Origin: a virus
Taxonomy: Duplodnaviria > Heunggongvirae > Uroviricota > Caudoviricetes
Direction: 5' to 3' (one strand)
Virus record (IMG/VR): IMGVR_UViG_2541047946_000018
Coordinates: 1 to 38,363 of that record
DNA: 38,363 nt
The translations under genes and the position numbers were made by a program. Positions 1,554 to 32,870 of this stretch are shown in pieces (the first letter of the stretch is position 1; every line of letters begins with the position of its first letter). A model generated the notes under the pieces. That model made no database searches and was not told where the DNA came from. It worked only from the letters and a program-made list of their open reading frames with translations.

Positions 1554-2060
1554 TTAACAGTCGTAAAATTCCGGGTCCCACAAACTTGCATCGCGCGGCA
1601 TGGATTCTAAATTTTTCAGCCGCAAAATTCTGTCACACTCGACAAGAAGTTTTTGTTTTTGTTCGTCAATTTCTACTTTTTTGTGTGCTGGCTCATCCCA
1701 GTAATCCAGAAGAAACGCATGTCGCTCAGACGTTACAAGATAAATCACATACACATCACTGGTTGGTATTTTTTTATGCTTGTTGGTGGTCTTGTCTTTC
1801 TTCCCGGATGCCCAGTTTTTCCAGCATTGTTCCGTACCGCTCTCACCAAACTTGTCAGTATAGTTTCCGATGTTTACGTGAACGTGGCGTATGTGATATT
1901 CCAGCATCTCTTTCGGTGGATCCCGAAACAGAGTGTCCTTTCCGAAATCCTTATGATGACCGTAGCGCCAGTGATCTATGAACGCGTTTTTGATAGGTAT
2001 TAGCTCAGGGTCCTTCCCAAAAATTCCAGGGTGAACCAACCCCTGGAATTTATTCAGCAT
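1554..2060 (-). CDS. YafO-like putative toxin (mRNA interferase family), paralog A
   Basis: ATG 2060 overlaps the upstream gene's stop by 11 nt. Shares HWR[YH]GHH, GKDTLF, HVHVNIG, TEQCW and YWDxPAH motifs with the paralog at 4049..4561; resembles E. coli YafO from memory. Confidence 0.55.
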   Translation of the reverse strand: MLNKFQGLVHPGIFGKDPELIPIKNAFIDHWRYGHHKDFGKDTLFRDPPKEMLEYHIRHVHVNIGNYTDKFGESGTEQCWKNWASGKKDKTTNKHKKIPTSDVYVIYLVTSERHAFLLDYWDEPAHKKVEIDEQKQKLLVECDRILRLKNLESMPRDASLWDPEFYDC

Positions 2061-2469
2061 CGTCGTAGAGCTCCTGAGCCATATCTTCGGCAGTGCGTGC
2101 AAACATCCTGCGCGAGATTGCATGAGATTTCTCGACGGACATCTTTGGGACCTCATGCATAACATTTTTGGGAGTTGTGTAATAGCCTATTACAATTTTC
2201 ACACCTGACTTATGATTAATATCAGCATAATATACTTCTTGTTCAGACGTTTCACGACGAACATAATCTGCCAGTTTTCCACATTTAAATTCCCCTCCCT
2301 GATGTTTTAAAATCTCCTCAACTGCACTATTTTCAGTGAAATACCGAATAAGAAATTTCTGTCCAGTCTCTTCAGCATGAGGTATAACAGTATTATTGGA
2401 AGCCCGAACAATGGCCTTACTCAATATTTCATGGTCTTTATTTTTTTCTGATTTCCTCAAATGCTGCAT
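2050..2469 (-). CDS. Small basic partner protein of YafO-like paralog A (putative antitoxin), acidic C-terminus
   Basis: ATG 2469 with GAAGAGAG RBS (track ORF starts at TTG 2505). N-terminal region similar to the partner at 3736..4062; not YafN-like. Confidence 0.45.
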   Translation of the reverse strand: MQHLRKSEKNKDHEILSKAIVRASNNTVIPHAEETGQKFLIRYFTENSAVEEILKHQGGEFKCGKLADYVRRETSEQEVYYADINHKSGVKIVIGYYTTPKNVMHEVPKMSVEKSHAISRRMFARTAEDMAQELYDDAE

Positions 2470-2504: not shown

Positions 2505-2521
2505 ACTACCTCTAGGGTAAA
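2505..2521. promoter_or_regulatory. Operator-like site ACTACCTCTAGGGTAAA (one mismatch), just downstream of a candidate sigma70 promoter for the minus-strand module
   Basis: On the minus strand TTGCCA-18 bp-TAGAAT precedes this site, 36 bp upstream of ATG 2469. Confidence 0.45.
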
Positions 2522-2629
2522 CATTCTATCGAAAGTATACGCATACTGGCAAAAAAATAGGCAGGTATTTTCTGAAATGGGATCAATCAAACCACATAGG
2601 GTTGAAATAACGTGAGTTATGCATTTATT

Positions 2630-3614: not shown

Positions 3615-3640
3615 GGCACAGGGATGTGCCTTTAAATAAT
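3615..3640 (+). terminator. Possible intrinsic terminator after the Bro-N gene
   Basis: GGCACA-ggga-TGTGCC hairpin followed by TTTAAATAATT. Confidence 0.3.
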
Positions 3641-3677
3641 TCTGTACAGATTGCAGACTGTGGGTGAATAGCGTACT

Positions 3678-3694
3678 ATTACCTTAAAGGTAAA
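3678..3694. promoter_or_regulatory. Operator site ATTACCTTAAAGGTAAA overlapping a candidate promoter (TTGCAG-17 bp-TACTAT)
   Basis: Palindrome 42 bp upstream of ATG 3736. Confidence 0.55.
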
Positions 3695-3735
3695 CCTGTT
3701 TTTATTTTATACCTGTAACTTACCGGAGATTAAAG

Positions 3736-4062
3736 ATGACAAAACTTGGATTCGTGATGAGAGGTCCGGTAAGAAGCGGAACTCATGCAAAGCGTAGCAA
3801 GAGTCGTATTTTTACTGGTAAGGTTGTAGCACGTAAATCAGCTATTGGCTCGTTCAATAGTGAAAATGCGGCATTGCGCCATATTTTTATCAGCACAAAG
3901 CCAAGAGCATCCGCTGATGTGCATACAATGTCTATTCCTATCACAAAGAATATAAAGCGGATAAAAAAGCTCTCATCTGCAGAATCAAAAGAGATATCTT
4001 TCCGCCAGCTTAACTCATTAGAAACGCATATGAAGGAAGAGGAATTCGATGTTTTTGAGTGA
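3736..4062 (+). CDS. Small basic partner protein of YafO-like paralog B (putative antitoxin), acidic C-terminus
   Basis: ATG 3736 with GGAG RBS; stop overlaps the downstream start by 14 nt. Confidence 0.5.
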   Translation: MTKLGFVMRGPVRSGTHAKRSKSRIFTGKVVARKSAIGSFNSENAALRHIFISTKPRASADVHTMSIPITKNIKRIKKLSSAESKEISFRQLNSLETHMKEEEFDVFE

Positions 4063-4561
4063 GTATAGCGGGAAGGTTATACCTACTGGTGAGTTTAAAA
4101 CTGATGACTTTCTGATTTCGCTAAAAGATGCTTTTAAACAACACTGGCGTCATGGTCATCATCCTGATCTGGGAAAAGATACTCTTTTTGAAAGACCAGA
4201 GGAAGTATTAGGCTTCCATCTCAGAAAGGTTCATGTCAATATTGGTGAATATGCATCATATTCATACTCATGTACTGAACAGTGTTGGGATGAGTGGTCA
4301 TATGGATTGATTGATGAACAAGGAAATTACAGGCCAAAACCAACCAGTAACGCATATCTCATATATGCAGTCAATGAAATAAGAGATGCAGCCTTACTAG
4401 CTTATTGGGACCCGCCCGCACACACCAAAGCTAACGCAAAAGTTTGGATGGATTCCGTATTGAATTTCACAAAATTATTTCATGAACGAACGAATACAGC
4501 TCCACTTAGTAGAAATGTTTATCCGTGGGATTATTCGTACAAATCCAAAAAGCCTGCATAG
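4049..4561 (+). CDS. YafO-like putative toxin, paralog B
   Basis: ATG 4049 with GAAGGAAGAGGAA RBS; same motif set as paralog A. Confidence 0.55.
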   Translation: MFLSEYSGKVIPTGEFKTDDFLISLKDAFKQHWRHGHHPDLGKDTLFERPEEVLGFHLRKVHVNIGEYASYSYSCTEQCWDEWSYGLIDEQGNYRPKPTSNAYLIYAVNEIRDAALLAYWDPPAHTKANAKVWMDSVLNFTKLFHERTNTAPLSRNVYPWDYSYKSKKPA

Positions 4562-4642
4562 TAGTTTTTTATGGACGAAACAAAAGTCAGTGCTACACTC
4601 ATTGACGCCACATTGAGGTGGTTTATAGATGGAAATTTCACA

Positions 4643-4804
4643 ATGAAAAAAGCATTTGCTGCACTGTTCGTTTTGTTGTCTCTGGTAGCTTCAACTCAGG
4701 CCTTTGCCGGTCGTTGTCAGCACGACAGCGACACTGCTGCTGACGGCTCCCGCTGCGGTGGGCGTTCTGCGGATTCCCGCCCGGGTGGCGGTGGCATTCG
4801 TTAA
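4643..4804 (+). CDS. Possible small secreted peptide (53 aa), third gene of the paralog-B operon
   Basis: Canonical Sec signal MKKAFAALFVLLSLVASTQAFA; no terminator between 4561 and this ORF; terminator immediately after. Confidence 0.35.
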   Translation: MKKAFAALFVLLSLVASTQAFAGRCQHDSDTAADGSRCGGRSADSRPGGGGIR

Positions 4805-4810
4805 AAACAA

Positions 4811-4832
4811 GGCCGCGAAAGCGGCCTGTTTG
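4811..4832. terminator. Bidirectional intrinsic terminator between convergent genes
   Basis: GGCCGC-gaaa-GCGGCC hairpin flanked by AAAAACAA upstream and TGTTTG downstream. Confidence 0.65.
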
Positions 4833-4833
4833 A

Positions 4834-5685
4834 TCACTGTGCAGTTTTCGCTGATCGATTTTCAGCTCTAAATTCAAGAACCGTTTCAATATTTCTTTCC
4901 TTCAGCATATCAATAACATTTTTATTCATTTGACTATCACTGGTTAATAACTGGTAAACGTTGCTTCTCTCTTTATCAGAGTTTTCTTTAACAGCTGCTT
5001 TGCATGCCAAATGCTTATTGAAATTTTCTACATCGCTAGTACAGGAATTTACGGCTGCTGATGAAATATCAGACGCTGAAGAAACACCATCATCCAAACG
5101 TTTTATAGCATTTTCTATACATGAGTTAAGGGAATAAACGACAACTGAGCGATACCCTTCAGACGCACACCATTCTAAATTTCTTGAAGGATCGAGTGGT
5201 TTTACTTCGCTGGATTGAATTAACTTGTCAAAAACTGACTTATATTCAATCTGTTTTTTATCTATAGCCCATACTTCAGTAGCTGATTTATAATTCCCCG
5301 TATGCCTATTAACATCAAACCCATGTTTTATAAGCAAATCTGCCCATGAAAGATTTATTGATTCATTGTTATGAGGCCATTTTCCTGTCAGAACCGCCCC
5401 CATAGACCCCATATATCCGCCATATGATGGTATAGCACCATGGCTCAGTAACTTCTCAGCAACCACAGGGCAATTAATTACATAAGAGGCGTAAAGCCCA
5501 TTCCATAAAGCCCCTCTATAGTAATCGCCACGATTAGGTTCTTTTAAGTCGATAGCCTTTGATAATTGTTCACACGTTTTGCATGCATCAAAGTTATCCT
5601 TATTGCATTGCAATGAACTGGCAGCTGTAGGATTTACAGAGACTATTGAAAGCACTATGCCAAAAAACAAATTTATTTTTTTCAT
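4834..5685 (-). CDS. AT-rich moron: secreted protein with possible ankyrin-like repeats
   Basis: Signal peptide MKKINLFFGIVLSIVSVNPTAASS; ANK-like segments (LLSHGA, LLIKHGFDVN); low GC versus neighbours; starts 1 nt after the gp16-like stop. Confidence 0.6.
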   Translation of the reverse strand: MKKINLFFGIVLSIVSVNPTAASSLQCNKDNFDACKTCEQLSKAIDLKEPNRGDYYRGALWNGLYASYVINCPVVAEKLLSHGAIPSYGGYMGSMGAVLTGKWPHNNESINLSWADLLIKHGFDVNRHTGNYKSATEVWAIDKKQIEYKSVFDKLIQSSEVKPLDPSRNLEWCASEGYRSVVVYSLNSCIENAIKRLDDGVSSASDISSAAVNSCTSDVENFNKHLACKAAVKENSDKERSNVYQLLTSDSQMNKNVIDMLKERNIETVLEFRAENRSAKTAQ

Positions 5686-22124: not shown

Positions 22125-22141
22125 ATTACCTTTCGGGTAAC
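22125..22141. promoter_or_regulatory. Operator site ATTACCTTTCGGGTAAC with adjacent TTGACA -35 hexamer (22104..22109), AACCACATA element (22074..22082) and half-site (22063..22068)
   Basis: Same cassette architecture as at 1128..1196, 2590..2646 and 29686..29764. Confidence 0.55.
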
Positions 22142-22462: not shown

Positions 22463-22539
22463 GTGGCATTAGCTCAGTTGGACAGAGCAACCGCCTTCTA
22501 AGCGGTTGGTCGCAGGTTCGAATCCTGCATGCCACGCCA
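22463..22539 (+). tRNA. tRNA-Arg (anticodon UCU), argU-like
   Basis: Cloverleaf: acceptor GTGGCAT/ATGCCAC, D-arm TAGCTCAGTTGGACAGAGC, anticodon stem ACCGC/GCGGT with loop CTTCTAA, T-arm GCAGGTTCGAATCCTGC, discriminator G plus CCA; close to E. coli argU. Confidence 0.9.
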
Positions 22540-32149: not shown

Positions 32150-32734
32150 ATGAAAAGTATCCAGGACGTCCGCAGGCAAAATCTCAACGACTTGATCGAC
32201 CGTGAATTCAATGGTGTTCAGACGCGGATGGCTGAAAAACTTGGAACTCAGGCAAATCTGGTAAACCGCTGGGCTCTTGGCAAGAAGGTTATCGGCGACC
32301 AGGTTGCACGAAAAATTGAAGCTGCCGCCAATAAACCCCGTAACTGGCTTGATATCGATCGCTCGCTTTCTCAGGAAGGTTTTCAGCCTGTCGGCCCAAG
32401 CGACATTGGCCAGCTGGCGGCTCACAACCTGGAACGCTGGATGAGCGAAAGCCGCGACCTTTCAACACAGGGAAAACTTCACCGCGCATCCGGCGTAGCC
32501 CAGGTGACAATCAGCCGCCTGTTAAACAATGAGGTCAGCGTTTCCATTTCCACCCTGGAGAATGTTGCATCCGCATTCGGGCGTCACGGCTATGAATTAC
32601 TGATTCACCCGCACGACCCTGCGACCATCAACTATGATCGCTCGCGCTACGCATTGTTACCCGAAACCGAGAAAGCAAAGATCGAAAGTTACATTGAATT
32701 TGTCATCAACCAGAACGAAAAAAACAAACAATAA
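32150..32734 (+). CDS. CI-like repressor with two HTH domains and no recognisable S24 autopeptidase domain
   Basis: Two XRE-type HTH segments; no GDSM/Ser-Lys dyad region; position between the operator clusters. Confidence 0.6.
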   Translation: MKSIQDVRRQNLNDLIDREFNGVQTRMAEKLGTQANLVNRWALGKKVIGDQVARKIEAAANKPRNWLDIDRSLSQEGFQPVGPSDIGQLAAHNLERWMSESRDLSTQGKLHRASGVAQVTISRLLNNEVSVSISTLENVASAFGRHGYELLIHPHDPATINYDRSRYALLPETEKAKIESYIEFVINQNEKNKQ

Positions 32735-32800: not shown

Positions 32801-32870
32801 GGGTAATTTTTTTAACTCATATCTATTGACATCAAACCATATACGCATAATTATTACCTCAACGGTAACA
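32801..32870. promoter_or_regulatory. OL/PL-like region: operator sites at 32801..32817 and 32854..32870 flanking a TTGACA -35 hexamer
   Basis: ATTACCTAACGGGTAAT and ATTACCTCAACGGTAAC; TTGACA at 32825..32830; extra half-site GGTAAC at 32877..32882. Confidence 0.6.

Follow-up and report, generated by a model that had tools for sequence, protein, structure and literature searches.

The locus at positions 3678-4804 of the virus record IMGVR_UViG_2541047946_000018, a Caudoviricetes sequence of 38,363 nucleotides (the whole of which is termed the window), raises the question of whether two overlapping genes placed behind a phage operator form a toxin-antitoxin (TA) pair whose transcription has been handed to the prophage repressor. 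The genes encode a 108-aa partner protein that is the candidate antitoxin (3736..4062, plus strand; phrog_5933) and a 170-aa YafO-family toxin homolog (4049..4561, plus strand), the latter preceded by GGAAGAGGA upstream of its ATG and overlapping the partner gene by 14 nt. The reading favored here, at somewhat better than even confidence, is that of a TA cargo pair gated by the prophage repressor and holding an accessory or defense role. The window is an epsilon15/phiV10-like (Uetakevirus) Escherichia coli prophage in which the flanks of this two-gene cassette match the phages EC.W1-9, phiv142-3, TL-2011b, and phiV10, and the stretch 3640-4830 has 99-100% identity to chromosomal prophages inserted beside guaA. 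A preliminary description of the sequence had listed three open reading frames (ORFs), an overlap of 14 nt, a palindrome (3679-3693), and a hairpin terminator, all of which were recovered at the same positions; the ribosome-binding sites were confirmed as well.

The YafO motifs that the preliminary description had recognized in the 170-aa protein proved to be real. A profile of the 40-sequence subfamily aligned with K-12 YafO in hhalign at 90.3% probability (E = 1.5e-6, 110 columns; query 18-148, YafO 11-128), at an identity of about 20%. The protein itself matched the Pfam model YafO_toxin (PF13957) below threshold, with E = 7e-4 and 20.1 bits over residues 36-145 and profile positions 7-100 of 101, and the model was matched at E <= 0.01 by 25 of the 40 aligned subfamily members, the best at 2.2e-6. 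Motifs in common with YafO include F-x2-[YW]-x2-G-x2-P, G-[KR]-D, R-x2-H, Y, and P-x2-H, and the subfamily-invariant residues F29, G42, D44, Y106, P122, and H125 pair with YafO F25, G39, D41, Y88, P106, and H109. The R59..H62 (R-x2-H) element corresponds to YafO R57..H60 with a register that is ambiguous by one residue, and H62 is invariant in the subfamily. The Cys/Trp-containing insert that had been described was also present, amounting to about 20-30 residues relative to YafO (about 65-97) and partly modeled as an extra helix.

The YafO family is classed within the RelE/ParE superfamily of the BECR fold, with the gene order antitoxin-toxin (PMC11980606). The AlphaFold2 (AF2) model of the 170-aa protein was confident, with a predicted local distance difference test score (pLDDT) of 94.3, and the sole toxin-type structures matched by this model in Foldseek were HigB chains, weakly at E 0.7-2.4. 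These weak, HigB-only fold matches fit the BECR classification of YafO and the lack of a solved structure with detectable sequence similarity to the 170-aa protein. The toxin gene is under strong purifying selection, with a nonsynonymous divergence (pN) of 0.13 against a saturated synonymous divergence (pS) of about 0.8. An exhaustive profile search returned 54 cluster representatives, and close homologs of 66-82% identity occur in Salmonella, Serratia, Enterobacter, and Raoultella. The protein falls in phrog_1651 (unknown function) of PHROGs and matched nothing in NCBIfam, and in dozens of genomes the Prokaryotic Genome Annotation Pipeline (PGAP) has already given this very protein the name “type II toxin-antitoxin system YafO family toxin.” The 170-aa protein is classified here, by homology, as a distant YafO-family (BECR/RelE-superfamily) toxin homolog of a family that is already known and annotated.

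The partner was stated in the preliminary description not to be an antitoxin of the YafN type, and this was borne out: no Phd/YefM-type or other known domain was found in Pfam, NCBIfam, or PADLOC, and the AF2 model was disordered but for a C-terminal helix. The mean pLDDT was 56, with confidence confined to residues 89-107, which have an amphipathic pattern. Neither the domain searches nor the AF2 model revealed a DNA-binding domain. Homologs of the partner form only six clusters and evolve fast, conserving a basic N-terminus (MTKLGFVMRG..KR.K.R) and a C-terminal amphipathic acidic helix ending in ISFRQLNSLETHMKEEEFDVFE, with the pattern ...S.E[IL]SFR.LNSLE..MKEE.FD.FE over the last ~30 residues, and with a middle that is variable and disordered. 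The ratio of nonsynonymous to synonymous substitution rates (dN/dS) was 0.34-0.52 for the gene as a whole, fell to 0.22 over the last 30 codons, and reached 0.74 in the middle, which marks the partner gene as genuinely protein-coding, with its C-terminal part under constraint. By its sequence features it is probably a short, mostly disordered antitoxin that lacks a DNA-binding domain. Its tail visibly resembles the YafN C-terminus (...M-x-acidic3-F-x-D-F-x-E) at weak scores; homology between the two tails was considered, but the resemblance is not significant and serves only as a lead, not as evidence. Separately, synonymous divergence was unusually low over codons 1-25 of the partner gene (3736-3810; pS 0.28 compared to about 0.5-0.8 elsewhere in the cassette), suggesting a constraint at the nucleic-acid level or a recombination boundary at the 5' end.

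Toxin and partner are strictly inherited together, as both were present at >=99% identity in 69 of 69 complete E. coli genomes carrying the cassette. At each homologous locus examined, a small ORF of 57-133 aa stood directly upstream of the toxin gene, adjoining or overlapping it, and these upstream ORFs were otherwise unrelated in sequence. The contexts of the toxin homologs were all of phage type: those in Salmonella and Serratia lay in podovirus prophages, and others were found in the tail module of a myovirus, in a P2-like phage, and on metagenomic and other short contigs; one metagenomic contig with a homologous pair also carries NinB and transposase-type (rve_3, HTH_Tnp_1) genes. In the metagenomic P2-like phage (locus L019, 1777-2546), the YafO-like gene is a distant one preceded by an ORF of 69 aa, and it lies between the portal gene and the Ogr/GPA genes, a position that we take to be the P2 tin/old defense hotspot. 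Small, co-oriented, coupled, and co-inherited genes with the antitoxin upstream are one hallmark of type II TA systems and were found here (14-nt overlap, 69/69). Another, a DNA-binding and autoregulating antitoxin, was not found, and the promoter has no palindrome besides the operator that recurs across the phage.

A second, paralogous cassette that the preliminary description did not mention lies on the minus strand at 1554-2469. It consists of a YafO-like toxin gene (1554..2060, minus strand; 168 aa starting MLNKFQG), identified from the ORF list by homology to the 170-aa protein, and a partner gene (2050..2469, minus strand; 139 aa from MQHLRK) that overlaps it by 11 nt and whose product ends in MFARTAEDMAQELYDDAE. 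The two toxins share 44% identity (E = 9e-41), and in 58 E. coli genomes the 168-aa protein bears the PGAP name YafO family toxin; Pfam gave it no match at E <= 0.01. The cassette is preceded on the same strand by a promoter TTGCCA-18-TAGAAT (2552-2523; 10/12 matches) and the one-mismatch palindrome TTACCCTAGAGGTAG (2520-2506), which together span 2506..2552. The partners of the two cassettes could not be aligned apart from a weak shared tail pattern, as would be expected of two cognate-specific antitoxins even though their toxins are 44% identical. The two tails were mutual best non-self matches among 2,882 decoy ORFs at E = 0.2-3, which is suggestive only. Both cassettes are also present in E. 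coli JNE25-001 (locus L024, 2501-5557), where the C-terminal 35 aa of the second-cassette partner are identical and the N-terminal part is diverged and longer; this suggests that the partner evolves modularly around a fixed toxin-proximal tail. In the window, the two cassettes flank a gene for a Bro-N antirepressor that has its own palindrome at 2631.

Upstream of the 3736-4561 cassette, 3' of the antirepressor gene, lies a terminator-like hairpin (3615..3630, plus strand; GGCAC-AGGGAT-GTGCC followed by TTTAAATAATT). Its stem pairing is kept by compensatory changes, with GGCAC/GTGCC here and GGCGC/GCGCC in the Salmonella loci L004 and L007; the terminator scan passed over it on account of its weak T tract. 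The hairpin is terminator-like, and may insulate the cassette against transcription from upstream. It is followed by a putative sigma-70 promoter (3651..3679, plus strand) with the −35 hexamer TTGCAG (3651-3656), a 17-nt spacer, and the −10 hexamer TACTAT (3674-3679), which a generic promoter scan did not pick up. The last T of the −10 hexamer is the first base of the perfect 7+1+7 operator palindrome TTACCTTAAAGGTAA (3679..3693, no strand assigned). The same geometry of −10 hexamer and palindrome recurs at two stronger promoters, TTGAAA-18-TATTAT at 2631, which serves the antirepressor gene, and TTGACA-17-AATTAT at 32854, the early promoter.

The palindrome had been described as a phage operator, and the genome-wide distribution of the motif agreed with this. 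TTACC-N5-GGTAA with at most one mismatch occurs at 15 sites in the window (1181, 2506, 2631, 3679, 22126, 22743, 25645, 25663, 29687, 29749, 31695, 32032, 32080, 32792, and 32854) compared to 0.6 expected, and none of 100 shuffled sequences contained as many. The sites lie in intergenic promoter regions of nearly every transcription unit, including those of accessory genes. phiV10 has 14 syntenic copies, and further copies occur at other intergenic sites of the Salmonella and Serratia prophages. The upstream regions from Salmonella, Serratia, and TL-2011b have diverged to about 65% identity elsewhere, yet the arms of the palindrome do not vary among them. The RefSeq record of epsilon15 lists ATTACC-N5-GGTAAT as protein_bind “repressor, lysogeny,” an annotation that is apparently itself a prediction, and the searchable literature contained no experimental work on Uetakevirus operators.

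Four of the sites (32032, 32080, 32792, and 32854) flank the gene for the prophage repressor (32150..32734, plus strand; 194 aa), the presumed binder of the palindrome; two of them lie between this gene and the divergent cro-like gene and two just 3' of the repressor gene, before the recombination operon. The repressor has two helix-turn-helix (HTH) motifs, matched in Pfam by HTH_3 over residues 106-147 and by a weaker HTH over 21-61, and no peptidase (cleavage) domain was found in it. Its phiV10 homolog is annotated as a two-HTH repressor, and overexpression of a homolog blocks lytic growth of the phage vB_EcoP_ZX5 (PMC9782041). A second motif, AAACCACATA, was observed at 1140, 2589, 22073, 29706, and 32834, about 35-50 nt from several of the operator palindromes; it had seven matches (<=1 mismatch) against 2.6 expected, and two of 100 shuffles reached seven. 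This motif does not occur in the promoter of the 3736-4561 cassette and could be a second regulatory element.

The cassette proved to be a discrete unit (3736-4561) that is variably present between backbone genes and exchanged for other cargo at exact borders. Its slot is a variable region with tail-fiber and antirepressor genes on one side and convergent injection-protein genes on the other, which we take to be the immI/sieA position in P22-type terms; a Salmonella relative (L007) has Arc, Mnt-like, and Ant genes there. TL-2011b is identical to the window through the end of the palindrome, continues with another cassette (a 59-aa ORF and a toxin that is 32% identical), and regains identity at the T-run ahead of the small signal-peptide gene described below. 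In EC.W1-9 (locus L002, 3290-4129) the slot is occupied by an unrelated cargo of two genes, whose products are a 108-aa protein and a 167-aa protein with hydrophobic, transmembrane-like stretches toward the C-terminus. The promoter of this cargo differs from that in the window, yet it has the TTACC-N5-GGTAA palindrome. No cargo was found in the corresponding slot of phiV10, and the cassette is absent from most Uetakeviruses, phiV10 among them; among 5,426 complete E. coli genomes, it was present in 69 and the minus-strand cassette in 58.

The possibility that the palindrome is the cassette's own autoregulatory site was rejected, given the 15 sites in the window, the intergenic copies in other prophages, and the unrelated EC.W1-9 cargo. 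Since the operator stands ahead of that cargo as well as of the swapped TL-2011b cassette, it is assigned, on this comparative basis, to the phage backbone and not to the cassette. Cargo that enters this slot seems to end up behind the phage operator every time.

The cassette had been proposed to be a three-gene module reading on into a gene for a small signal-peptide protein (4643..4804, plus strand; 53 aa, or 77 aa if translation starts at 4571) whose signal sequence has the form MKK-hydrophobic-AFA, and this part of the preliminary description did not hold. The small gene occurs in 497 E. coli genomes compared to 69 for the cassette, is missing beside the cassette in the Salmonella and Serratia prophages, and in TL-2011b is separated from the YafO-like gene by an intrinsic terminator. 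It is preceded by a promoter-like site (4602..4629, plus strand; TTGACG, 16-nt spacer, TATAGA) that the rules of the promoter scan left out. In TL-2011b the small gene must have a promoter of its own because the identical 4602-4629 stretch there follows the intrinsic terminator. The mismatched distribution, the TL-2011b terminator, and the promoter-like site led to rejection of the three-gene operon, and the small gene is taken, from these comparisons, as an independent backbone gene outside the cassette. Its product falls in phrog_14503 and phrog_3117 and is named “transmembrane anchored protein” in many Enterobacterales. The cassette in the window has no terminator of its own, and its transcription may read into the small gene. 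Downstream of the latter, a GC-rich hairpin AGGCCGC-GAAA-GCGGCCT (4810..4827, no strand assigned) appears to be a bidirectional terminator common to a convergent minus-strand gene (4834-5685); the terminator scan called it on the minus strand only, with the tail TGTTTTTAAC, and on the plus strand the same GC stem has the weak T-tract tail GTTTGATC. An inverted repeat CCAC-N6-GTGG (4608-4621) was also noted inside the spacer of the promoter-like site; it is kept in TL-2011b and could be a separate operator.

According to the favored reading, the product of 4049-4561 would be a divergent YafO-family endoribonuclease that, by homology with its family, would cleave mRNA on or near ribosomes and so bring translation to a halt; YafO is reported to cut 11-13 nt downstream of start codons. 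The partner, whose gene lies upstream and is translationally coupled, would most likely bind and block the toxin through its C-terminal amphipathic acidic helix. The operon is probably not autoregulated because the partner has no detectable DNA-binding domain. The operator at 3679-3693 abuts the promoter, shares one base with it, and covers the predicted transcription start; given this placement, the repressor encoded at 32150-32734, if it binds the site strongly enough, would be expected to keep transcription of the cassette low in the lysogen and to release it upon infection or induction. The likeliest role would be an accessory one, either in defense by abortive infection or in stabilization of the prophage, with the toxin firing when the antitoxin supply fails.

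Several observations weigh against this reading. The 170-aa protein scored under the PF13957 gathering score (20.1 against 25 bits), its BLASTP comparison with K-12 YafO was not significant, and Foldseek returned no significant neighbor for the toxin model. The partner had no demonstrable similarity to any antitoxin: hhalign aligned only its last 29 residues with K-12 YafN, weakly at 0.3% probability and E = 0.23, and a hidden Markov model comparison of the two tails likewise gave a weak match at E about 9-13. PADLOC-DB 2.0 gave no match at E <= 1 for any of the four proteins compared with it, and the searchable literature held no experiment on this YafO-like subfamily or on phage-borne YafO-like pairs. 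The cassette promoter is weak, with 7/12 consensus matches in a dedicated promoter scan, and is predicted rather than mapped. Furthermore, a promoter occluded by the repressor fits awkwardly with a defense role that needs expression in the lysogen. The sub-threshold scores of the YafO models, the missing Pfam match of the 168-aa toxin, the absence of significant antitoxin similarity in the partner, and its strongly conserved but unexplained basic N-terminus would also suit an unlikely alternative in which the pair is not a functional TA system, the YafO-like protein having lost or changed its activity (for example via the Cys/Trp insert) or the partner being no antitoxin, in which case it could be a nucleic-acid-binding regulator or a cofactor. 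That alternative is at odds with the invariance of the residues shared with YafO in 40 diverse subfamily members, with the strong purifying selection on the toxin, and with the universal retention of a small upstream ORF despite unrelated sequences, which is a signature of toxin-driven retention of a neutralizer.

The operator geometry invites other explanations. Phages are known to place host-killing genes under repressor control, lambda kil and P1 kilA being examples, and the cassette might similarly serve host shutoff, being silent in the lysogen and supplying an RNase that remodels or stops host translation early in lytic growth with the partner as timer or buffer. The operator abuts the −10 hexamer and covers the predicted start just as at the early (32854) and antirepressor (2631) promoters, the antirepressor gene has a YafO-like cassette on either side with the same control element as its own, and all cargo types in the slot have the operator. 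However, a non-selective mRNA endonuclease would hit phage messages too, tight coupling with a co-expressed partner leaves no obvious net activity, most Uetakeviruses including phiV10 lack the cassette, so that it is dispensable for lytic growth, and distant homologs reside in cargo or defense-type slots of unrelated phages; on balance, host shutoff was considered improbable. A comparably low probability was given to the palindrome having little effect at this locus, with the cassette being a constitutive moron or defense TA pair, or one transcribed mainly by read-through from the antirepressor gene. The weak predicted promoter and the weak T tract of the 3615-3630 hairpin are in line with this, and phiV10 has a one-mismatch copy of the palindrome upstream of oac, according to its depositors a superinfection-immunity gene, so that a gene close to a palindrome is not necessarily switched off in the lysogen. 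Nevertheless, the arms are invariant in upstream regions of about 65% identity, the operator abuts the −10 hexamer and covers the predicted start as at the two stronger promoters, and the epsilon15 depositors annotated the motif as a repressor site. A more elaborate, immunity-gated device was judged rather doubtful: the global repressor would set both YafO-like RNase pairs flanking the antirepressor, the antitoxin having given up DNA binding. With no greater likelihood, loss of the repressor, through induction or the antirepressor of a superinfecting relative, would release a pulse of toxin and labile antitoxin. It was deemed just as unlikely that this pulse would either shut off host translation in a timed manner or raise an infection-aborting alarm, with the state of the lysogeny switch as the sensor.

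Among known systems, the type II TA system YafN-YafO of K-12 resembles the proposed repressor-gated TA pair in its anatomy, with the antitoxin-then-toxin order, coupled ORFs, and toxin homology over essentially the whole YafO domain. The phage toxin differs in being only ~20% identical and in having the Cys/Trp insert and extra helix, and the partner in being no Phd/YefM-fold YafN; in addition, the module is phage-borne and its presumed controller is the prophage repressor. The preliminary description had called wiring to the prophage repressor in place of autoregulation a non-standard TA arrangement. The operator is indeed the phage's; however, the foreignness of the arrangement was overstated, since yafNO in K-12 is itself co-transcribed from the LexA-controlled dinB promoter (PMC7781912), and the phage cassette would resemble yafNO in standing under a repressor not encoded by the module. 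HigB-type and gp49-type BECR toxins cleave mRNA and have documented roles in abortive infection (PMC11980606), and the phage YafO-like toxin, by its homology to YafO, probably belongs to the same fold superfamily. HigBA differs in its toxin-antitoxin gene order, the reverse of that found here, and its structural similarity was non-significant (E 0.7-2.4).

Phage morons and prophage defense cargo such as P22 sieA/immI and P2 tin/old resemble the cassette in being variably present and swapped at exact borders. Classical morons have a promoter that is active in the lysogen, whereas the cassette promoter is overlapped by the operator of the lysogenic repressor, and in contrast to prophage defense cargo the cassette has no PADLOC model match. 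Dispersed operators are found in phage P1, where the C1 repressor has more than 15 operators, and in mycobacteriophage L5, where gp71 acts on stoperators. Multiple operators of L1/L5 have been mentioned (PMC1934351). A single repressor motif is likewise scattered genome-wide over most transcription units in the window, but its sites are symmetric 15-17-bp palindromes rather than asymmetric sites, and the predicted binder is a two-HTH repressor.

The unusual or new aspects of the system are the class of the partner, the toxin insert, the duplicated cassettes, and the operator wiring. If the favored reading is true, the YafO family, which is small (about 1,000 Pfam members), would gain a phage-borne branch paired with a new class of short, disordered antitoxins without a DNA-binding domain. 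TA transcription would have been outsourced to a prophage repressor, which is relevant to the ways in which phages hold toxic cargo silent or poised, and the immI-like slot of Uetakeviruses would be marked as a place where incoming cargo falls behind the phage operator. In practical terms the gain is modest, as the toxin is annotated already and the cassettes occur in few E. coli genomes (69 and 58 of 5,426).

Two further features of the window were recorded. The convergent gene at 4834-5685 (minus strand) encodes a protein of 283 aa (phrog_6118, function unknown) that carries a signal sequence at its N-terminus, and related prophages have Rap1a-domain proteins (PF18602) in this position, which looks like a further variable cargo position. 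Finally, a tRNA-Arg gene (anticodon TCT) lies at 22463-22539 on the plus strand within the late region, with a TTGACA hexamer and the operator site at 22126 upstream of it.

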